Source: an uncultured Verrucomicrobiae bacterium
GTDB taxonomy: Bacteria > Verrucomicrobiota > Verrucomicrobiia > Palsa-1439
Assembly (NCBI GenBank): GCA_963812605.1
Contig: CAWEWF010000001.1
Location: forward strand, 544,001-608,000
Direction: 5' to 3'
Length of the DNA stretch: 64,000 nucleotides
The notes beneath the pieces are model-generated. The model saw only the letters and a program-made list of their open reading frames with translations. It did not search any database and had not been told where the DNA came from. Positions 2,640 through 37,188 of the stretch are shown piece by piece (positions within the stretch are counted from its first letter, which is position 1; each line of letters begins with the position of its first letter). The translations under genes and the position numbers were made by a program.

Positions 2640-3143
2640 GTGAAACACGACTCATTTGAAATCAACAAAAAGGATGACATGTCCATAGCTCGACGAGAGA
2701 CCGAAATCTCTGTACTAATCGGCCAGGAGCCGCCAAATGCCAGCGCCACGACAGTAATCGCGCGGTACCCCGATATCGAAGTGTTTACAATACGTTCCTA
2801 CTGCAACCGTGACGGCGTCGTATTGCTGTTGGTGACGACGAATGCGGCGAAAACCGCGCACGTCCTCAATGCTGCCGGGTTCCAATGCGAGGCCAACCCC
2901 GTTGTATTGATTGGCCCCATCAATCGCTCCGGCTGCGCGGCTCCCATCGGAACCGAGCTGACCAATGCGGGAATTGAAGTCCTCTACTCTTATACCTCTC
3001 ACAAGGAACGCGACCGGCATTACCTGGTTTTCAAGACATCCGATGATGATGGCGCGATTCAGATCCTGACTGCCAGCCCGGCATTTCAGTCGTTGACCTG
3101 CGATGATTCCCTGCAAGATCGGGAAATGGCAATCGCTGAATGA
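2640..3143 (+). CDS. tandem ACT-domain-like protein
   Basis: Two beta-alpha-beta-beta-alpha-beta-like halves (EISVLI...; LTNAGIEVLYSY); start uncertain. Confidence 0.55.
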   Translation: MKHDSFEINKKDDMSIARRETEISVLIGQEPPNASATTVIARYPDIEVFTIRSYCNRDGVVLLLVTTNAAKTAHVLNAAGFQCEANPVVLIGPINRSGCAAPIGTELTNAGIEVLYSYTSHKERDRHYLVFKTSDDDGAIQILTASPAFQSLTCDDSLQDREMAIAE

Positions 3144-3174
3144 TTCAGTTCATTCCGATAAGCGGCCGCAGTGG

Positions 3175-3591
3175 TCATTCCCCAATAATCTTCACCAGCG
3201 CGCGTTTGCGGCGTTTGCCGTCGAATTCGCCGTAGAAGATCTGCTCCCAGGGGCCGAAGTCCAGTTGTCCGTTCGTGATCGCGACGACCACCTCGCGGCC
3301 CATGATGGTACGCTTTAAGTGCGCGTCGGCGTTGTCTTCACCGGTGTTGTGGGCGTACTGGGAATGTGGTTTCTCGGGAGCGAGTTTCTCCAGCCACTTT
3401 TCGAAGTCCTGGTGCAGGCCCGATTCATTATCATTGATGAAGACGCTGGCGCTGATGTGCATGGCGTTGCAGAGCACGAGGCCTTCCTTGACCCCGCATT
3501 CCCGCAGACAGGTCTCCACTTCGGATGTGATATTGACGAAGCCGCGTCGGGAAGGGATGTTAAACCAGAGTTCCTTGCGATAGCTTTTCAT
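3175..3591 (-). CDS. yjbQ: YjbQ/UPF0047 family protein
   Basis: [36 protein letters not shown]; start trimmed to ATG at 3591. Confidence 0.92.
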
Positions 3592-3640
3592 GGCTTCCAC
3601 AATAACGTTTGTGCTAAGAATAACAACCGGAGAACGACCC

Positions 3641-3991
3641 ATGAAAATTGCCAGCGTCAAAGAGATTCCCTCGGAAAAGGTGGACATGGACGGCGCAAAA
3701 GACTGCCAGGTCAGGCTGGCGGTGACGGCGCGCGACGGCGCGCCAAATTTCGCGATGCGCATTTTTGAAGTGTCGGCGGGCGGTCACACGCCTTTGCATC
3801 ATCATCCGTACGAGCACGAGATCTTTGTGATGGAAGGGCAGGGAACCGTCTGGCGGGACGGCCAGGAAGTGGCGATCAAGCCGGGCGACGTGCTTTACAT
3901 CCCGGCGGATGAACAGCACCAGTTCAAGAACGCCGGCGACCAGGCTTTCAAGTTTATGTGCCTGATCCCGGCGAAATTCCAAAAGTGCTGA
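3641..3991 (+). CDS. cupin domain protein
   Basis: [14 protein letters not shown] and IPADEQHQF cupin motifs. Confidence 0.9.
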
Positions 3992-3997
3992 ACGCAA

Positions 3998-4552
3998 ATG
4001 GCGCGGCTCACCAATATCGTCACGCGCACCGGGGATGACGGCACGACAGGGTTGGCCGGTGGCGGGCGCGTCAGCAAAGATTCGCCCCGCGTCTGGGCGT
4101 ACGGCACGGTGGACGAGTTGAACTCGGCCATCGGCGTGGTCCGGTCCCTGAACTCCGATCCCGATCTCGATGCGCGCCTCCGCCAGATCCAGAACGATTT
4201 GTTCAATCTCGGCGGAGAACTGGCCACGCCACCGGACAAATTTCAAAAAGGCATGCCGCGCATCGAGCGCCGGCACGTGATGGATCTGGAGAAGCAGGTT
4301 GAGGAATTGACCGGGAAGCTGGGGCCGTTGCAGGAGTTTATCCTGCCCGGTGGCGGCCCGGTGGGCGCGCAATTGCATGTGGCGCGGACGATTTGCCGTC
4401 GAGCGGAGCGCTTCTGCGTGCGCCTGGGCAAGGAAGAAAAGATCGGTGAGTTCGTGACCCCTTACCTGAATCGCCTGAGCGATGCCTTGTTCACGCTGGC
4501 CCGCTGGAGCAACAAGAAGGCCGGCGCCAAAGAGACGTACTGGAAAAAATGA
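3998..4552 (+). CDS. pduO: ATP:cob(I)alamin adenosyltransferase, PduO type
   Basis: TRTGDDGTT, YGTVDELNS, ARTICRRAER, YLNRLSD. Confidence 0.93.
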   Translation: MARLTNIVTRTGDDGTTGLAGGGRVSKDSPRVWAYGTVDELNSAIGVVRSLNSDPDLDARLRQIQNDLFNLGGELATPPDKFQKGMPRIERRHVMDLEKQVEELTGKLGPLQEFILPGGGPVGAQLHVARTICRRAERFCVRLGKEEKIGEFVTPYLNRLSDALFTLARWSNKKAGAKETYWKK

Positions 4553-4599: not shown

Positions 4600-5340
4600 C
4601 TACGCGTGGACGAGCATTTTGCCGAGCCGGGCACTCACCGCGGTGAACACGATCTCGCCGATTTGGACGAGGTTGAATCGCGAATTATCGATCACCAGGT
4701 CGGGATTGATGACGTGTTCGGGATGTTCCACGAAATGTTTGCGCAGGTACTGCTCGCGACGCCGTTCGCCATCCGTGATGATCTTTTTGGCTTCACCGTG
4801 GGTCACTTCACGAGTGGCGGCCACATGGAGCGCGCGCCAGTCGAGGGGCGCGATCAGCTTCACATGCAGACCGGTCTTCAAATCCTGCGTGATCAGATAA
4901 CTGCCACGCCCGAGCAGAATGGCGCGCCCGAGGATGGCCAGCGAGCGGACCACTTCCGCCAACTGCCGCATCTCCGGCGCATCGTCCGCCTCCCGATTGA
5001 GAATCGTGTCGAACAATTTGCCCGTTCCCTCGCGGCGACGGCTATCGAGCGCCTCGGTCACGGTACCGCGAAGATGCGGGTCGGTTGAGATTTTATTGAG
5101 CAACTCGTGATCGTAATCGACCCAGGCGAAAGACGGGCGACAGCGTTCGTTCAGAACGTCCACGAGCCGGTGAGCGAGGGCCGCGCCTTCGCACCCGTAT
5201 TGCCGCGAGATGGTGATGAATTGGTGAAACTCGGGGGAACGTGGGGAGTCGGCGTGCTTGGGTTTGTGCCAGGCGCGCACGTGCGCGTCAAGGCGGGCGT
5301 CAAGATCCGGTCTCACCCAACCGTAGGGGCTCTTGCTCAT
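4600..5340 (-). CDS. cytidylate kinase-like family protein
   Basis: ITISRQYGCEG, GRAILLGRGS, DLVIDNS; ATGA overlap with the atpC stop. Confidence 0.85.
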   Translation of the reverse strand: MSKSPYGWVRPDLDARLDAHVRAWHKPKHADSPRSPEFHQFITISRQYGCEGAALAHRLVDVLNERCRPSFAWVDYDHELLNKISTDPHLRGTVTEALDSRRREGTGKLFDTILNREADDAPEMRQLAEVVRSLAILGRAILLGRGSYLITQDLKTGLHVKLIAPLDWRALHVAATREVTHGEAKKIITDGERRREQYLRKHFVEHPEHVINPDLVIDNSRFNLVQIGEIVFTAVSARLGKMLVHA

Positions 5341-5762
5341 CGCTTAACGAGAGCATAATCCGCAACCTTCAATCGCGCAAGCGCGCGTTGGAGGGAAGCC
5401 TTGGCCCGAGCCAGGTCGATCTCGGGAGCGGCTTGCTGCAATCGTTGCTCCGCCCGCTCCTGCGCGCGACGGGCGCGTTCCACATCGATTTCCTCGGGGC
5501 GCTCGGCGCTACGCGTGAGCACCGTCGTGCGCTCCTTCTGCACCACGAGGAATCCGGTGCCGACGGCGACATACTGGTCCTGCCCGTCGGGCAGACGCAT
5601 CCGCAACGGACCGGGCTTGAGCGCGAACACGAACGGCGCATGGTGCGCGAGGACCTCAAACACGCCTTCCTGGCCGGGGGCAATGACAAAGCGGATTTCT
5701 TCGCGCAGAAAGAGCTTCTGCAGCGTGAGGATTTCAAACGGGAATGTCTTCTCGTCGGCCAT
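5337..5762 (-). CDS. atpC: ATP synthase F1 epsilon
   Basis: GVFEVLAHHAP, EIDVERARRA; operon position. Confidence 0.95.
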   Translation of the reverse strand: MADEKTFPFEILTLQKLFLREEIRFVIAPGQEGVFEVLAHHAPFVFALKPGPLRMRLPDGQDQYVAVGTGFLVVQKERTTVLTRSAERPEEIDVERARRAQERAEQRLQQAAPEIDLARAKASLQRALARLKVADYALVKR

Positions 5763-5769
5763 GACGCGC

Positions 5770-7229
<1,460 letters not shown>

Positions 7230-30157: not shown

Positions 30158-31078
30158 TCAGCCGCGCTTGACGCGGGTGCCGTCATTGTCGGCGATGAGG
30201 ATGTGGGTCTCGCAGCGGATTTGCTGTTTGGCGAACACATTCGCCATCGCTTCGGCGACGGCTTTTTCTTTTTGCTCCGCGAGGCACATGATCGAGGCGC
30301 CCGAGCCGCTGAGCCAGCCGGCGAGTGCGCCGGCTTCCACGCCACCGGCAATGACCTCATCAAGCATGGGAATGAGTTTCTTGCGATAGGGCTGGTGGAG
30401 CTTGTCATCGAACAAACCGCGCAACAGGGAATAGTCGCCGGTCGCGAAAATCGAGGTGATCAGGGCGACCCGGTTCAGGTTCTCGACGGCGTCCCGCAGC
30501 GGCACCATTTTCGGCAACAGGGCGCGGGCTTTTTCGGTGGAAACTTCGTACTCGGGCACGCAGACGACAAATTTCAAAGCGGGCGGGACATTGAAGCGGC
30601 GGTAGCGCACCGTGCCGTTGATCAAGGCCGAGACGACGAACCCGCCGAATAGCGCGGGCGCCGCATTGTCGGGATGGTGCTCGAGTTCGGTGACCAGATC
30701 GAGCAACTCCGTGTCGCCGAGCGGGCGGTCATTGAGTTCGTTGAGGGCGAAAACAATGCCCAGGCGCACGGTCACGCTGGAGCCCAGGCCGCTGGAGACG
30801 GGCACATCCCCTTTGACCTCAATTTGCAGGCCGTGCGGCTTTCCCTTGCTGCGACGGAAAAAGGCGTCCACGGCTTCCCGCGCCATGGCGTTGGCGGAGG
30901 CCGACCCCTTCTGGTTGTCGATGCGCTCGACGGTCAGCGTGTCGGCCTCGCGGATGGAAACTTGATTGTGCAACTTCAGGGCGATGCCGAGGGTGTCGAA
31001 GCCAGGACCGAGGTTGGCGGTCGTGGCGGGCACGCGAACAGTGACTGAAGGCTTTCTCACAGAGACGCGATATTGCAT
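30158..31078 (-). CDS. thrB: homoserine kinase
   Basis: VPATTANLGPGFD, GLGSS, HPDN, LHQPYR, LSGSG. Confidence 0.95.
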   Translation of the reverse strand: MQYRVSVRKPSVTVRVPATTANLGPGFDTLGIALKLHNQVSIREADTLTVERIDNQKGSASANAMAREAVDAFFRRSKGKPHGLQIEVKGDVPVSSGLGSSVTVRLGIVFALNELNDRPLGDTELLDLVTELEHHPDNAAPALFGGFVVSALINGTVRYRRFNVPPALKFVVCVPEYEVSTEKARALLPKMVPLRDAVENLNRVALITSIFATGDYSLLRGLFDDKLHQPYRKKLIPMLDEVIAGGVEAGALAGWLSGSGASIMCLAEQKEKAVAEAMANVFAKQQIRCETHILIADNDGTRVKRG

Positions 31079-31321
31079 GGCGCAACGAGGCAAGTCAAGT
31101 GGCTGCGGTGCTGACGCGAAGTGCCTTGATGATTCAATGCCCCGGGCGGGCGGATCCGACGCATTGCTGATTCCGCGGAGGCACTCGATTCCTCTTTTTG
31201 AGATTCCTCCTTCGTATTGAACCACGAGGTTTCCTTGATTTTATGGGCAAAAATCGAGGTTGGCATACCCACTGCTATCTAGTTTGCCAGTCAGGCGTTC
31301 CGCAGAGGCAGGACTGATAAG

Positions 31322-31705
31322 ATGAGCGAGACCAACAAACAGGACATCTACCGGGTGCTAATCGTGGATGAGGATGCTGCGCTGCGTGAACTGCTCGCCG
31401 GCTTGCTACGCGCGCCGAACCGCAGCGTGGAAGTACGCGATAGCGCACGCGCCGCGTTGGAATTTTTGCGGCACAATCCCATCGATATTGCGTTTGTCGA
31501 TGCGGCGTTGACAGGCGCAACCGCGCAACATCTGGCGGACAAAATCAAGAAACTCTGCCCGCACGCCCATGTCGTCGTCTGTGCCGGACGTTTGTCCCAA
31601 CCGTGGGACAGCGCGGGCCGCACCCGCAAGGGCGAGCGCGAACTGCGGCAACCATTCAATTTTGGCGAGGCCCTTCAGCTCGCCGATTCGTGCAAGACCG
31701 AGTGA
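31322..31705 (+). CDS. receiver-domain protein (degenerate)
   Basis: VLIVDED, DIAFVD; QPF in place of KPF. Confidence 0.72.
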   Translation: MSETNKQDIYRVLIVDEDAALRELLAGLLRAPNRSVEVRDSARAALEFLRHNPIDIAFVDAALTGATAQHLADKIKKLCPHAHVVVCAGRLSQPWDSAGRTRKGERELRQPFNFGEALQLADSCKTE

Positions 31706-31845
31706 AAATGAACACGATCTCGATTAGGGCGCTGGCTCCAGGGTTGGCTGTGAAGCAGGCTGCGCTGGGTGCGCAGGAAAAACCGTTCATGGCGGACCAG
31801 CGCCTCTTTCTTTGGGACATTGCCGAAAGCCCACGAGGCTTCGGA

Positions 31846-31959
31846 CTGTCCGCTCGCGACGGGTTGAGAGTCAACTGTTCGAATCCCCCCAACGCCATCA
31901 AGGTCGGCGCCTCCTCCGACCGAAGAACAGCTTGATCTCTCAACCCGCGCGCGCGGCAG
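31846..31959 (-). ncRNA. structured RNA resembling the Acido-Lenti-1 motif
   Basis: Long stem GGGTTGAGAG.TCAA.CTGTTC / GAACAG.TTGA.CTCTCAACCC plus inner stem GGTCGG/CCGACC; the family name is recalled, not searched. Confidence 0.5.
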
Positions 31960-32232
31960 CTCTTCTGCCGCGCCGGCGAGTTAGCAGTTTGGAAAATGAA
32001 ATTTTGTAAATAGACAAATGAGCAGTCCTTCAAAAAATCGTCTCTGGGAAACCCTGACCCGTCCCATTCCTCTAAAATGGACGTGGAAGGACGGGGTGGC
32101 GCTCGCCATCCTGGCCTTGATCGTCCTGATCAAGAATGCCCTTTCCAAGTCGGGCACAAGCGGCCATCGCCTGCTTGCTTTTCCACCCGTGTACGTTATA
32201 TTCGCACTGCCATAACACGGCTATATTCTCAT

Positions 32233-32587
32233 GGGGGCGAAACGGATTCGACTTTGTGGGGTGAGCGTGAGCGGCATGCCGAGGTTGTCAGGAGGCCTCG
32301 TTAAAAACCTGGCAAAAACATAACTGCGAATCACGAACTCGCACTCGCGGCTTAATTGTCCGCGACGTTCCGCCTGCGACACCTGCTGGTGGGGTCGGAA
32401 CGACGATAGCAGGTTAGTCTATGGATGTCGTCTTCAGGTCCATGGATGAAACACTAACTGGAGGCTGGCGCGGCGGGTGGCCTGTCCATTGGCAGCACGC
32501 CGGGCGAGACCCAAAGATGGAATAAGCATGTAGTCACTTGCGTGCGCTTTGCAGAGGACGTGGGTTCAACTCCCACCGCCTCCACCA
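32233..32587 (+). ncRNA. ssrA: tmRNA, tag (A)ANHELALAA at 32326-32355
   Basis: 5' GGGGGCGAAACGGATTCGAC, tag ORF ending ALAA-stop, 3' T-arm GTGGGTTCAACTCCCAC and GCCTCCACCA. Confidence 0.97.
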
Positions 32588-34087
32588 CTTTGAACTTGGC
32601 GTGAAATCATCGACCGCGCTCGGCGCGGCAACGGTGGTTTCAGCCAAGAAATTCCAGGGTTTTCTGAAGGTAACAGTTAAGGTCTGCTCGCGTAAAAGGC
32701 GGTTCGAGCAGACCTTTTTAAGGAACCCTTTCATTTCTAACCAGTTTTGGTCAGTCAGCCATTCTTCGGCCTTGTTTGCCTCAAAAAGCCAGTTTTTGAG
32801 GGGTTCGAGCCGATGAGCATGGTTTGACTCCAAAGTGGTGATTTGACCCTCCAATTCGACCTTGCGGGGCAGGAGGGGGTTTTTGAGTTCCTTGAACTCC
32901 TCAATATCGAGTGACCCGTCGGCAAAGCCGTTGTTGATGCGGTCGATCTTGGTCTTGATCGCCGCCAACTCGGCTTTGAGTCGGTCGATCTGTATTTGCC
33001 TCCGTACCGTCTCCTCCTCTTCCCACGTTTCAACTTTGGCGAGAAACCGTTCCTTCCATTCGATGGGAAGGGCGACTAGCTGCGTGTTCCGTTTCACTTC
33101 ATCGGCGAACGTGTCTTTGCGAATGTACGAGCGGTCTTCGCAATGCACCTTCTTGTTCTTGTGGGTGCATCGGTAGTAGTCGAAGCGAAGGCCGCTCTTT
33201 TTGATATGCCGTTCGCCGGTGATACAATGGCCACAGGAACCGCAGGTAGCGAAATTCAGGAAGAGAAATCCTTTGTCGTCGCGATGCTTGCGAGGCTTCG
33301 CGACGGCAACAAGCGCTTCTTGAATCTGATCGAAGGTTTTCTTCGAAATCATGGGCTGGTGCACGCCGTGGTGCACTTCGCCCTTGTGCAGAAAAACGCC
33401 ATAGTAGAAGTGGCAGCGGAGCAGGTTGCCGACGGAAGAAAGTGGTAGTGGCTTGCCATTCTGTCGGCCTAGAATACCAAGCTTGGTTGACTCTTTCTGG
33501 ATGGCGGTGAGCGAATATTCGCCTGTGGCGAATAGCTCCAAAAGCCGCTTCACCTTGGGAAAAAGCTCTGGATGGGGTTCGATGGTGCGGAGGCGTGGTT
33601 CATTTACATAGCCAAGTGGTGCTCTGCCGGACCATACGCCGCGTCGAACCTTCTCGCGGATGCCCCTGCGGATATTTACGGAGAGATCGCGGACGTATTG
33701 GTTCGCCATGCCGAGTTCAACTGCTATCATGAGCACGTTGTCGGATGGCAGGTACGTTCTTTCAAAGGCGCGGATTTCCTGAATGACGCCTCGCTGGAGC
33801 AACCCGATGATCTTTCCCCCGTCATCGAAGTTGCGGGCGAGTCTATCGAGCTTCCATGAAAGAATGGCATTCGCCTCGCCGCGTTCGATGCGGGCTAGCA
33901 TGTCGTTGAAGATTGGTCGGCCAGGCTCCTTGGCGCTCCGACTTTCGGTAAATGTTTCGACGATCACCAAGCCGTCTTGCCGCGCGATCGAGTTCAATTC
34001 GGAAAGCTGGGCTTCGATGGAAAGAATTTGTCTGTCTTCATCCTCCGTCGATTTGCGCGCATATACGAAGTATTTCAGCATGGACAT
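32534..34087 (-). CDS. large serine recombinase (resolvase + recombinase + Zn ribbon + coiled coil)
   Basis: YARKST catalytic Ser, KLDRLARN, GRAPLGY, CGSCG...YYRC...C; the last 54 nt are antisense to tmRNA. Confidence 0.95.
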   Translation of the reverse strand: MSMLKYFVYARKSTEDEDRQILSIEAQLSELNSIARQDGLVIVETFTESRSAKEPGRPIFNDMLARIERGEANAILSWKLDRLARNFDDGGKIIGLLQRGVIQEIRAFERTYLPSDNVLMIAVELGMANQYVRDLSVNIRRGIREKVRRGVWSGRAPLGYVNEPRLRTIEPHPELFPKVKRLLELFATGEYSLTAIQKESTKLGILGRQNGKPLPLSSVGNLLRCHFYYGVFLHKGEVHHGVHQPMISKKTFDQIQEALVAVAKPRKHRDDKGFLFLNFATCGSCGHCITGERHIKKSGLRFDYYRCTHKNKKVHCEDRSYIRKDTFADEVKRNTQLVALPIEWKERFLAKVETWEEEETVRRQIQIDRLKAELAAIKTKIDRINNGFADGSLDIEEFKELKNPLLPRKVELEGQITTLESNHAHRLEPLKNWLFEANKAEEWLTDQNWLEMKGFLKKVCSNRLLREQTLTVTFRKPWNFLAETTVAAPSAVDDFTPSSKWWRRWELNPRPLQSARK

Positions 34088-34123
34088 AGTCTAGCAGATT
34101 TCATAAATGATTGCGATATAAAA

Positions 34124-34531
34124 ATGAAGCGTCAGAAACATTTTACAATACCGAAAGCACTGCTCAAGAAACTGCGGGGTAATTCCTCGTCGGAGCGCCT
34201 GCTGCATCGCCTGCATGCCGTCGCGCTCGTTGCTGGCGGGCTTTCGGCTAGTGAAGTCGGGCAAATCTACGGTGATTCCCCCCGTGCTGTGGCCTATTGG
34301 GTGACTCAATACAGGAAGAGCGGCTTTGAAGGACTACAGGAGGAGGATCGCCCTGGTCGTCCGGCGCAATTAAGCCCAACGCAGATGAAGAAGCTGCAAA
34401 CTTTTGTGGAACAATCTCGTGCGAGATCACGAACGGTGAATGCGAACATCCTCTCCAAGTATATCAAAGAAGAGTTCGGCATTTCTCTTAGCACCCCTCA
34501 GTGTTGGCGGATTCTTAATCGATTGAAATGA
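34124..34531 (+). CDS. stand-alone HTH protein resembling the IS630 transposase N-terminus (no DDE domain)
   Basis: RLHAVAL...AVAYWVTQY..GFEGL...RPGRPAQLS...EEFGISLS..CWRIL; divergent from the recombinase. Confidence 0.8.
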   Translation: MKRQKHFTIPKALLKKLRGNSSSERLLHRLHAVALVAGGLSASEVGQIYGDSPRAVAYWVTQYRKSGFEGLQEEDRPGRPAQLSPTQMKKLQTFVEQSRARSRTVNANILSKYIKEEFGISLSTPQCWRILNRLK

Positions 34532-34603
34532 GTGAGTGTTGTGGTTGTCGGGTGTTTCTTTAGGCTCGATGGTGCGTATGCGGCGCCAGCAGTGAAGCTG
34601 GTC

Positions 34604-34780
34604 CCGCCTTTTACGCGAGCAGACCTTAACTGTTACCTTCAGAAAACCCTGGAATTTCTTGGCTGAAACCACCGTTGCCGCGCCGAGCGCGGTCGATGAT
34701 TTCACGCCAAGTTCAAAGTGGTGGTGCCTTCTGGAGAAAGTTCGTACCTTTTTTAATGAAAATCCAGTCTGATTTGGGTA
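34604..34780 (-). repeat. internal inverted attP copy (177 bp)
   Basis: 34604-34724 is the exact reverse complement of 32582-32702 (121 bp); 34719-34780 is the exact reverse complement of 35386-35447 (62 bp); the two overlap on TGGTGG. Confidence 0.93.
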
Positions 34781-35447
34781 AGGGAGCAATGGCTCCGTGA
34801 AGAGATCCGCGCGAACCGAATCATGATTCTTGAACTGATGAAATGGGGGGTAGTAGTTCTGTCCGGCGTTACGTCATCGCTATATTTTGTTCGGCGTAAC
34901 GTGGCGAAGCACTTGGCGGCACTCGGTGCACACCTTCGCCGTCGATGGGGTAAGAGGGGTATCGACGTAGCACAAGGGGGGTGTAGCCGAAGCGTATGTA
35001 ACCCGAGCCGATCCATCTGCGTAGCTGCGAAACGGGAGGGGAAAAGGTGTCGAGAGGAAACCTGGGGAGGCTTCCTCCCTGTTTTCCTGCGAACCCGTTT
35101 CCGGGTTCTTGTCTCCCGCGTAAGCGGGCTGTCCCACCCGTGTTCGACCCGTTAAAGGACATTGTCCTTTAACACGTTCCCGTGCGTGGGTGAACCCGTT
35201 GTGTCGCCTCTGCGACGAGCGCGAGCACGGCCTGCCCTGAGGCCGCGCGCAGCCCGATTCCGCGTGAGCGGAAAACCTATGGAAGTAGGGGATGTCAAAC
35301 GAGGGGTGAACCACGACAAAACCGTTGTAAACATTGACTCATCTGGGATCAGCACCCCTCCCCACAGTGGGGAAGGGTGTGGGGATACCCAAATCAGACT
35401 GGATTTTCATTAAAAAAGGTACGAACTTTCTCCAGAAGGCACCACCA

Positions 35448-35497
35448 TTCGACGCGCCCTTCGCTCAAGCGAAGGGCTTGCTCATGGCAGGCCATTC
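35448..35497 (+). repeat. hairpin/REP-like sequence, presumed original downstream flank of tmRNA
   Basis: TTCGAC..GCCCTTCGC-TCAA-GCGAAGGGC..GCTCATGGCAGGCC immediately after attR. Confidence 0.55.
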
Positions 35498-35545
35498 CAC
35501 TAAATTCGACACAGACTCTTTGCACGCCAGCGCGGCGAATGGGCG

Positions 35546-35833
35546 ATGAACTCCTACACCTATATTCTTCTCTGTGCCGATGATTCTCTGTATGTTGGGC
35601 ACACGCACGATTTGAGTTTGCGGGTCGATGCACACGACACAGGTCGCGGCGCTCTTCACACCGCCAAACATGGAGTTGCTCGACTGGTCTACTCAGAAGA
35701 ACATGCCACCGAAGCGCTAGCCGTGGCACGCGAACTTCAGATCAAGAAATGGAGTCGTGCGAAGAAGATGGCGCTCATCAATGGGGATTTTGAGCGACTA
35801 CGCGAACTCAGCCGGAGCCGAGACAAATTCTAA
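35546..35833 (+). CDS. GIY-YIG nuclease family protein (YhbQ-like)
   Basis: YTYILLC..SLYVGHT..R...H, ARELQIKKWSRAKK. Confidence 0.92.
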   Translation: MNSYTYILLCADDSLYVGHTHDLSLRVDAHDTGRGALHTAKHGVARLVYSEEHATEALAVARELQIKKWSRAKKMALINGDFERLRELSRSRDKF

Positions 35834-35876
35834 AGCGTTGCGAAAGGCTGCTCAAAGGCGGTGGAACATCCTGCGG

Positions 35877-36683
35877 ATGACCGTCATGTTCGAGGGAAAG
35901 ACCCGGCGGCGTAATCGGCTTCAGGCACAAACCTTCCCCGCATTGTGGGGGGCCATCCTGCAGCAAAACGTCTCGTACTATCAGCGGCTCACCCCGTCCG
36001 AGCGCAAGGAATTGCACGGTGACATTCAGGTGTTCATCGCGGAGAAAAACTTCGAAGGGTGCGGCGGCCTGGAAATTACCGAGGAGATCAAAGTCACTAT
36101 TGCCGCTTACGCCTGCATCCTGTTGCTGAACCGCCGGCACGATTTTTATCCGCGTCTGCGATCCATCCTCGTCTATCCTGATGCCTATCCCGCGGCGGTG
36201 GTGCGAATCGCGCCGGGAAACATCGCAATCGAAGGCCACGAGATGCGCGCCGGGGAATCCTGGCGGACTGGGGCGGTGGTCCTATCGTGGAACCATGTCC
36301 TGCGTCGCCCGGCGGCGGTTCCGGAGGGCCGAAATGTGGCGCTCCATGAGTTCGCGCATCAGCTCGACCACGAGAATGGCTTTACCAACGGCGCCCCGGT
36401 CTTGCCGACAACTTCCCAATATGCCACGTGGGCCCGCGTTCTCGGGAGTGAGTTCGCTACCTTGTCCAAACAAACCGCGGCTGAACAGCCGACGCTCATC
36501 GATAAGTATGGCGCAACCGAACCGGCCGAGTTCTTCGCTGTCGTCACGGAATATTTCTTTGAAAAATCGGCCCAGCTCCAACAGCGGCATCCCGAACTTT
36601 ACGAGGAGTTAAGGCGTTTCTACCGCCAGGACCCGGTCAGCACGGATCGCATGGAATCACCAACGCGCCAGACCCCAAAATAA
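35877..36683 (+). CDS. M90 family zinc peptidase (MtfA-like)
   Basis: GESW..GAVVLSW, HEFAHQLD, YGATEPAEFFAV.TE.FFE. Confidence 0.92.
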   Translation: MTVMFEGKTRRRNRLQAQTFPALWGAILQQNVSYYQRLTPSERKELHGDIQVFIAEKNFEGCGGLEITEEIKVTIAAYACILLLNRRHDFYPRLRSILVYPDAYPAAVVRIAPGNIAIEGHEMRAGESWRTGAVVLSWNHVLRRPAAVPEGRNVALHEFAHQLDHENGFTNGAPVLPTTSQYATWARVLGSEFATLSKQTAAEQPTLIDKYGATEPAEFFAVVTEYFFEKSAQLQQRHPELYEELRRFYRQDPVSTDRMESPTRQTPK

Positions 36684-36746
36684 ATGCACCCCAACGGCCA
36701 CGCAGGGCCGCCGGGGTGCATGGAACTGCTTGGCCTTTGGGAAGGC

Positions 36747-36983
36747 TTACTTCCGTTTTTGCGCGGCCTTGATCTTGGCCCAACGAGCGCGCTGTGCCGC
36801 CGCGATCCGCTCACGAGCGGCCGCCGAAAACCTCGGCTTGCGCCGGGTTATCAACTTGGAACCGGTAACTCCTCCATCCAGGGATGAAAGCGCCTTGAGC
36901 GCGAGGTTGAGCTTTTCGAGTTCGTGCTCTGCGTGTCGGCGTTGAATCTGCAACTGCTGAACAACTTGATTGATACTAGACAT
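36747..36983 (-). CDS. small basic coiled-coil protein, putative nucleoid-associated
   Basis: N-terminal coiled coil plus FSAAARERIAAAQRARWAKIK tail. Confidence 0.75.
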   Translation of the reverse strand: MSSINQVVQQLQIQRRHAEHELEKLNLALKALSSLDGGVTGSKLITRRKPRFSAAARERIAAAQRARWAKIKAAQKRK

Positions 36984-37188
36984 GATCCTCCGGGACTGGT
37001 TATTGCTCACATGACAATTTCACTCACGCGAATAGTGTAACAACATCGTAGCGTTAGTTCAACTGTTTCGTGTGACGATCGGTCCTAAGGATCCATGAGG
37101 CGATGTTGTTTGATTTCAACCCCAATGGGTTTATAATGCCGGGAAAGAAATTGGCAAGTGTTGGCGGTCAGCAAAGGAATACCATTCG

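Follow-up and report, generated by a model that had tools for sequence, protein, structure and literature searches.

How does an integrase gene survive when the attachment site of its own element lies inside its coding sequence? This question is raised by a locus in a window of 64,000 nucleotides, the whole stretch of DNA analysed here, from an uncultured Verrucomicrobiae bacterium (assembly GCA_963812605.1, contig CAWEWF010000001.1, positions 544,001 to 608,000; coordinates below count from the first letter of the window). In this locus the gene of a large serine recombinase (LSR) runs into the 3' end of ssrA, the transfer-messenger RNA (tmRNA) gene, and an inverted copy of another possible end for the same gene lies upstream of it. 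We consider it probable that the locus is the integration module of a 2.85-kb, LSR-driven integrative element at the CCA-3' end of ssrA, in which integration swaps the tail of the integrase and a twin attP site is conserved. The integration-dependent swap of the tail is well supported by the comparisons described below.

In a three-way alignment, one hexamer, TGGTGG, corresponding to two consecutive tryptophan codons (WW) of the integrase gene, is common to the attachment (att) sites attL, attP2 and attR. The attL site is composed of the P arm, TGGTGG and antisense ssrA, attP2 of P, TGGTGG and P', and attR of DNA downstream of ssrA, TGGTGG and P'. An earlier note, made from the letters of this DNA alone, had placed the attachment core inside the recombinase gene at its WW codons, and the alignment located it at that place, at 32582-32587. 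It had also proposed that the integrated protein takes its tail from antisense tmRNA. Consistently, the open reading frame (ORF) 32534..34087 on the minus strand ends within ssrA, its C-terminus being ...SSKWWRRWELNPRPLQSARK, of which residues 503-517 (RRWELNPRPLQSARK) come from antisense ssrA. Translation of 34545-34775 on the plus strand gave ...LLREQTLTVTFRKPWNFLAETTVAAPSAVDDFTPSSKWWCLLEKVRTFFNENPV*, i.e. the native integrase end CLLEKVRTFFNENPV, in agreement with the claim that the internal attP copy encodes an alternative tail followed by a stop; its coding part 34605-34772 (...SSKWWCLLEKVRTFFNENPV-stop) lacks a start codon of its own. Both tails are 15 amino acids long and the duplicated arm terminates 8 bp past the stop codon 34770-34772, as had been read before. 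All positions and sequences given in that note proved correct. It did not include the third site, attR (35442-35447), whose minus strand encodes the native tail once more.

The sites are carried by two inverted repeats. Repeat I1 pairs 32582-32709 with 34597-34724 (128 nt, 98% identity) and contains a stretch of 121 bp (32582-32702 / 34604-34724) that is perfect in self-BLAST, while repeat I2 pairs 34719-34780 with 35386-35447 (62 nt, 100%). The right side is closed by attR, giving an element of 2,854 bp (32588-35441) present in one copy in its own 4.17-Mb genome. Because the attP core coincides with the two WW codons of the integrase gene, recombination between attP and attB would replace the final 15 integrase codons with the antisense reading of ssrA, and on excision (attL x attR) the native gene would be re-formed. 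The second, identical and inverted attP places the module formed by the integrase and a helix-turn-helix gene between the perfect 121-bp inverted arms, and the cargo, nearly all lost in the window, sits between the second pair of inverted arms. The features of the locus are collected in Table 1.

Table 1. Features of the ssrA-associated element, in window coordinates
Feature	Position	Strand	Basis or remark
ssrA (tmRNA), intact, tag ANHELALAA	32233-32587	+	ARAGORN; Rfam RF00023, 195.3 bits, model positions 1-374
attL core, final 6 ssrA bases CCACCA	32582-32587		Crossover hexamer common to all three sites
P arm copy 1 and core (115 nt closing the native integrase gene, then TGGTGG)	32582..32702	-	Left arm of repeat I1 (perfect part, 121 bp)
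LSR gene, integrated-state reading, 517 amino acids	32534..34087	-	ORF list; Pfam PF00239, PF07508, PF13408
Divergent helix-turn-helix gene, 135 amino acids	34124..34531	+	Pfam HTH_32/HTH_28/HTH_23
attP2 (internal intact attP), inverted relative to the integrase gene	34597..34780	+	Repeat search, alignment, translation
attP2, P arm	34604-34718		
attP2, core TGGTGG	34719-34724		
attP2, P' arm	34725-34780		
Remnant of the cargo segment	34781..35385		About 600 bp, without Pfam-matched ORF
attR: P' arm copy 2 and core (35442-35447)	35386..35447	-	Right arm of repeat I2 (62 bp, perfect)
attR, native tail codons	35397-35441	-	
attR, stop codon	35394-35396	-	
ORF ending ...VEWWCLLEKVRTFFNENPV at attR	35394..35729		ORF list
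G+C-rich hairpin just past attR	35457..35496	+	Read from sequence

Public sequences of relatives illustrated both an empty and a fuller version of this locus. In a contig of a relative about 87% identical (run X3), position 32594 is joined to position 35946 with 110 other letters in between, which corresponds to an empty ssrA end. In genome G001, a 96%-identical integrase lies on the same side of a syntenic ssrA, in an element of about 24.4 kb with attL near position 118970 of contig C53, attP2 near 116830 and attR near 94535; the right flank of the window resumes at 94499. Positions 34931-35447 of the window match the DNA adjacent to attR in G001, and 34781-34930 have no match there. Among the cargo genes of G001 are those for a Replic_Relax protein, a pair of coupling proteins resembling TrwB, a primase of the DnaG type, a SRAP peptidase and a DNA methylase. 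Because of these coupling-protein, Replic_Relax and primase genes, the G001 element would be of an integrative mobilizable or conjugative type, and the window element appears to be a derivative that has lost nearly all cargo. An Rfam scan of 31000-37000 returned ssrA as the sole match above threshold; the hairpin just past attR gave a sub-threshold match to Acido-Lenti-1 (21.9 bits, E 0.11) and is likely the displaced terminator of ssrA, i.e. the B' side of the original attB.

Three minor observations concern the same insertion site. A contig of 1047 nt from run X1 matches 32144-32591 (ssrA and its upstream DNA) with 2 differences and then continues into about 600 nt of unrelated sequence, so in that sample the ssrA end of the same species seems to be either occupied by another kind of DNA or free of such an element. 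A small gene of the GIY-YIG nuclease family (35546-35833) stands directly downstream of attR; it is also absent from the X3 empty-site contig and may thus be a separate insertion. Finally, with the original terminator of ssrA now 2.9 kb away, a hairpin on the ssrA-sense strand at 32684-32722 (12-bp stem, 13-nt loop, then TTTTT), which falls within the integrase gene just where the inverted repeat ends on its inner side, is a candidate for halting read-through from ssrA; the terminator scan gave no call there, the loop exceeding the limit of the tool.

The integrase itself was assigned from its domains. Pfam detected Resolvase, Recombinase and Zn_ribbon_recom in it, PF00239 covering residues 7-152 (E 2.5e-18), and the serine nucleophile S13, in a Y-x-R-K-S motif, is invariant among 31 aligned homologs. 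The true start may be at 34081, because homologs begin with MLKYF. The enzyme has the resolvase catalytic domain of LSRs together with a Recombinase domain and a zinc ribbon with an inserted coiled coil; in the model of homolog P0116, long helices (340-443) lie between the zinc-ribbon strands, and this model resembles the LSR-att complex 9y66_A (Foldseek E 8.6e-20; VIA Z 15.3 over residues 1-478). The window enzyme thus belongs by its domains to the large serine recombinases, and catalysis at its att sites is predicted. A link of the integrase to phages was considered and dropped, the best relative in IMG/VR being 33% identical.

We then asked what is exchanged when the last 15 codons are replaced. 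Among 8000 candidates scored, 4123 homologs were retained, and 8 of the best 120 (64-81% identity) possess a native-type tail. The alignment of homolog C-termini that the earlier note had called for bore out the conservation of this tail: 32 distinct internal copies gave the pattern W-W-[CSA]-[LF]-L-x-x-x-R-T-[FV]-F-[DE]-E-N-P, with L5 present in 32/32, R9 in 31/32, T10 in 27/32, F12 in 25/32, E14 in 21/32, N15 in 23/32 and P16 in 19/32. Mean column entropy was 1.05 at the first codon position, 0.72 at the second and 1.34 at the third, and the arginine is kept through changes among CGA, AGA and AGG. This third-position variability, together with the retention of arginine across codons, points to selection on the tail peptide. 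The tails read from antisense tmRNA or tRNA in relatives range from one to more than 40 residues and look unselected. In the AlphaFold2 model of P0116, which has a native tail, the mean predicted local distance difference test (pLDDT) value is 79.8, the 10-residue blocks covering 451-510 average 90-94, and a helix at 492-512 spans both the tail and WW (499-500). The part of the model that can be aligned with solved LSR-att complexes covers residues 1 to about 480, the last two helices lying mostly beyond, so that the C-terminal 40 or so residues (476-512) would be a family-specific extension. The codons replaced at integration encode a conserved segment of this predicted C-terminal helix, CLLEKVRTFFNENPV.

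The att sites were also compared with the general behaviour of LSRs, in which the zinc-ribbon motif lies about 5 bp further out in attP than in attB. At 35 loci, the match between P' and the antisense tmRNA or tRNA arm was calculated for 19 shifts. It was highest at +5 (306/840 = 0.364), compared with 267/840 = 0.318 at +4, 225/700 = 0.321 at -6 and a lowest value of 0.138. The R-T codons of the tail spell a TCGAAC-like motif, which at +5 or +4 falls on the T-arm of the antisense tmRNA or tRNA. The best match at +5 agrees with the displacement expected of the zinc-ribbon motif. Apart from this shifted resemblance, attP and attB have just the 6-bp core in common.

The layout was then followed through the family, in a close set of 93 loci (19 from genomes and 74 from metagenomes, not de-duplicated). 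The 3' end of the integrase gene is visible in about 74 of these loci, and about 70 of them enter antisense tmRNA, tRNA-Ala, tRNA-Val, tRNA-Pro or fragments; the other visible ends are native tails in L154 and L176 and a different exit in L020/L151, which are one same sequence. An inverted copy of the P arm that reaches the core and then P' was found in 48 related Verrucomicrobiota loci (14 genome, 34 metagenome), usually 520-640 bp upstream of the integrase start and with arms 100% identical in most of the 48. The second inverted repeat, formed by P' and about 210 bp called Yr, was found in all four genomes tested: 273 bp at 99.6% identity around about 22 kb of cargo in G001, 265 bp at 100% around about 8.2 kb in G002 (a complete long-read chromosome, locus L014), 263 bp at 100% around about 20 kb in G003 and 276 bp at 100% around about 3.9 kb in G004. 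In a distant set of 59 relatives at about 40% identity, mostly Patescibacteria with one Elusimicrobiota, the integrase adjoins a tRNA or tmRNA gene in antisense in 34/59, with many specificities represented, and an inverted repeat of at least 100 bp extends from that junction to 1-4 kb upstream in 22/59. Since the layout recurs in dozens of independent relatives, chance is excluded. The twin inverted attP skeleton is inherited across the family.

The helix-turn-helix gene follows the same family only in part: a homolog stands divergently upstream of the integrase in 64/93 close loci and in 0/59 loci of the Patescibacteria type. Its product in the window resembles the N-terminal half of IS630-type transposases, and it is a candidate regulator or directionality factor.

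Two further arrangements were seen among the close loci. In L104, L134 and L171, the core is followed by just 14-17 nt or so from the 3' end of tmRNA and then by unrelated DNA, the next bases being common to L104 and L134. This arrangement suggests that other elements inserted in the T-loop of the tmRNA gene, and such insertions would have displaced the old tmRNA 3' end along with the twin-attP element. In L016, two integrase copies stand in tandem (2770-4115 and 5141-6486, 84% identical over 1350 nt), separated by a 135-nt palindrome, which points to tandem arrays at one ssrA.

The comparison of the arms gave information on how the two copies are maintained. Between elements the P arms have a median identity of 66% (595 pairs), whereas the two arms within one element are 97-100% identical, mostly 100%. 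Between the window and G001, 2/121 P-arm positions differ and P' is 88% identical over a 69-nt match, and inside each of these genomes the two copies agree with each other. The copies inside one element thus evolve in concert. Crossover at the core alone cannot homogenise the arms, so exchange within the arms must be frequent; from this we infer gene conversion, with or without crossover.

Under the reading that we prefer, a tail swap by integration in an element with a conserved twin attP, the ssrA-fused isoform would be impaired or differently regulated, having lost a selected tail and being encoded by a gene convergent with the strongly transcribed ssrA. Integration would thereby damp the integrase, in a milder form of what is described for the archaeal 'suicidal' integrases. 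Exchange between the arms, probably by homologous recombination, would keep them identical. Now and then it could also invert the module, which would bring back the native gene; in nature this flipped state is presumably rare or short-lived.

Several observations weigh against this reading or parts of it. At the R-T codons (TCGAAC), the conservation of the tail overlaps the presumed DNA half-site motif, so that part of the signal would belong to the DNA. For the window's ssrA-fused isoform, modelled with a comparable alignment, pLDDT was 23-36 over residues 461-517, and the contrast with P0116 compares two different sequences and alignments; at most, the models hint at a small C-terminal fold that the tail would complete. 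The difference in activity between the isoforms is one that we infer from these sequence features. The P-arm copy is truncated in three elements (L010/L118, L011, L016) and missing despite the presence of upstream DNA in six loci (L026, L123, L137/L138, L141, L163, L164), so the second attP would be dispensable. The sole candidate for a flipped form is L105, in which the upstream copy is joined to a 25-60-nt fragment of the tmRNA 3' end, and the integrase end of this locus runs off the contig. The two native-tail loci, L154 and L176, come without the DNA upstream, and either circles or assemblies with collapsed repeats could account for them.

The half-site coincidence and the few truncated or absent copies are also what one would expect if the internal copy were an accident, either an assembly artefact or a decaying, functionless duplication, with the 'native tail' conserved merely as attP half-site DNA. 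Against such an accident, the same layout is found in assemblies from many projects, including the complete long-read chromosome G002, and the arms are 100% identical in most elements although the elements themselves differ by about a third. Moreover, the F-[DE]-E-N-P codons lie beyond the 25-bp half-site and vary mainly at third positions, and the arginine persists through its three codons. We regard the accidental origin as extremely improbable and close to refuted.

The earlier note had gone further and proposed that inversion of 32703-34603 restores the native tail in the chromosome. The geometry indeed would rebuild the native gene; its occurrence is what the family did not bear out, since about 70 of the 74 visible integrases face a tmRNA or tRNA gene and L105 is the only candidate for the other orientation. 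Inversion is thus geometrically possible and unproven. In its strongest form the proposal is a programmed switch, in which flipping of the segment toggles between a crippled ssrA-fused integrase and the native one and so sets the fraction of cells capable of excision. The 121-bp perfect inverted repeats bracket the segment in the right geometry, their identity across lineages speaks for frequent exchange between the arms, selection acts on the native tail as a peptide, the 8 database homologs mentioned above carry this tail, and L105 shows the expected kind of joint. However, no locus is confirmed as flipped, the upstream copy continuing into P' in 48 loci and into part of a tmRNA gene in one; gene conversion without crossover would maintain the identity of the arms equally well; and excised circles can yield the native-tail proteins. 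Public Logan contigs (shares <=0.23) showed no strand-changing joints, a result that carries no weight because contigs cannot show minor isomers. The bias towards one orientation could itself mean that the flipped state excises and is then lost; other possible causes are conversion without crossover, or integration favouring the in-gene site. We hold a programmed switch to be unlikely. If the module does flip in the chromosome, homologous recombination across the 121-bp arms is the more likely route, since work on the A118 integrase, as far as accessible, detected no recombination of attL with attP when the integrase acted by itself (PMC3556126).

Another possibility is that the second attP acts in the excised circle, which the two identical inverted sites would divide into two arcs, allowing integration through either site, hence in two orientations, or a low-level attP x attP inversion that raises copy number during replication. 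In the yeast 2-micron plasmid, inversion by Flp at its FRT sites during replication amplifies copy number in this manner. A role in the circle fits the inverse duplication of a unit of about 390 bp (P, core and P'.Yr) in the 4/4 genomes tested and the presence of replication and relaxase-type genes in the cargo of G001. It also fits a 622-nt contig from run X4, which runs unbranched through P, the core, P' and Y with the P arm joined to 35441->34951, as expected of a non-integrated form; this contig has three possible readings, a circle junction, a cargo-flipped isomer or the internal attP of a relative. The A118 integrase recombines two attP sites, at less than 5% of its attP x attB rate according to the accessible text (PMC3556126). 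On the other side, equal use of the two attP sites predicts that both orientations are common and only one is, the replication of the circle is an assumption and the window element is nearly cargo-free. This role appears quite improbable to us. The most ambitious proposal would combine these ideas and see the twin inverted attP as a two-state device of a large, cross-phylum family of serine-integrase elements. Integration would disarm the integrase, as a reversible bacterial analogue of the 'suicidal' integrases, a single flip would re-arm it, an attP x attP flip in the circle could amplify the element in the 2-micron manner, and only a small subpopulation would become competent for excision. 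We consider this device as a whole doubtful.

How do these features compare with known systems? The earlier note had pointed to mycobacteriophages. In mycobacteriophages such as BPs, attP lies in the repressor gene, the integrase is a tyrosine recombinase and integration removes a C-terminal degradation tag. This analogy is sound in that attP lies in a coding region and integration changes a protein's C-terminus, and with it, presumably, its behaviour; it is loose in that the attP of the window lies inside a serine recombinase gene and BPs is not known to have an inverted spare copy. The native tail of the window integrase ends in ...FNENPV. Judging from the portions of the papers available to us, closer precedents are dsiB of Dehalococcoides (PMC3146451) and the archaeal 'suicidal' integrases (PMC8371274). 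In the ssrA islands of Dehalococcoides, the serine integrase gene dsiB always overlaps attL and has its stop codon in ssrA, and its product was proposed to be fully functional perhaps only on the circle (McMurdie et al. 2011, PMC3146451, as given in its accessible text). As in the window, an LSR gene at the edge of the island stands beside ssrA, reads into it and overlaps attL. The Dehalococcoides islands differ by an insertion in the T-loop with a 20-bp direct repeat, versus the terminal CCACCA and a 6-bp core in the window, and by the small serine recombinase DsiA as partner of DsiB, versus a helix-turn-helix protein as the only neighbour of the window integrase. The word 'inverted' is absent from the accessible text, so no second inverted attP is described there (PMC3146451). 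As far as that text goes, an integration-dependent C-terminus is thus a kind of feature already known since 2011.

In the archaeal SSV-type integrases the integrase gene itself contains the site; the accessible part of a 2021 review gives them as found in archaea only (PMC8371274). As in the window, integration alters the integrase's own gene, and excision depends on an intact copy. According to the same partial source, however, they are tyrosine recombinases whose gene is split mid-way, whereas the window enzyme is a bacterial serine recombinase that loses only its last 15 residues, and the window element, unlike the SSV-type, keeps a spare inverted 3' end. The canonical integrases of phiC31, Bxb1, A118/LI and SPbeta have the same domain set, a short core and an attP arm motif displaced by 4-5 bp relative to attB; they differ from the window integrase in that its attP lies within an ORF, it inserts into tmRNA or tRNA genes at their CCA end and it carries the C-terminal extension of about 40 residues. 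The twin inverted attP is a feature of the window family and not of these canonical integrases. In the Hin, Gin and Cin invertases and in the yeast 2-micron Flp/FRT system, the sites are identical and both orientations are readily found. The likeness to these systems lies in recombinase sites placed in inverted repeats that bracket a segment with, or beside, the recombinase gene; the window enzyme differs from the invertases in being of an integrase type that normally pairs attP with attB only, and one orientation dominates.

In our judgement the result of greatest interest is that the skeleton with twin inverted attP sites is conserved. We found no description of this layout in the full-text literature searched, which does not extend to subscription-only papers, nor in the accessible portions of the tycheposon preprint and the Integrase-On-Demand paper. 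If our reading is right, the serine integrases of this family target tRNA and tmRNA genes in Verrucomicrobiota as well as in genomes of the Patescibacteria type, in every case at the CCA end and leaving the target gene intact, whereas the accessible text of the Islander paper states that serine integrases are not known to target tRNA genes (PMC4383910). A bacterial serine integrase would then lose a selected C-terminal helix segment at each integration, which bears on the claim, in the part of the review available, that such behaviour is exclusive to archaea (PMC8371274). The twin attP would offer a testable model for an element that locks itself in and occasionally re-arms, and naturally paired attP and attB sites at a universal sequence feature would be of interest for integrase toolkits.

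Two other sequence features were noticed inside the element. On the minus strand at 35340-35390, the motif GGGTATCCCCACACCCTTCC directly follows the native stop codon at attR and occupies the same position in most family members; it is more conserved than the surrounding coding sequence, opens a near-perfect 13-bp palindrome in the window and could be an integrase terminator or a protein-binding site. At 35003-35081, a non-coding stretch of about 70 nt without Rfam match ends with a terminator-like hairpin (35063-35081). Copies of it, 80-83% similar, were found in the same genome (G000:C3:73651-73729) and in contigs C34 and C10 of G001; a small RNA and a repeated regulatory element are possible identities.

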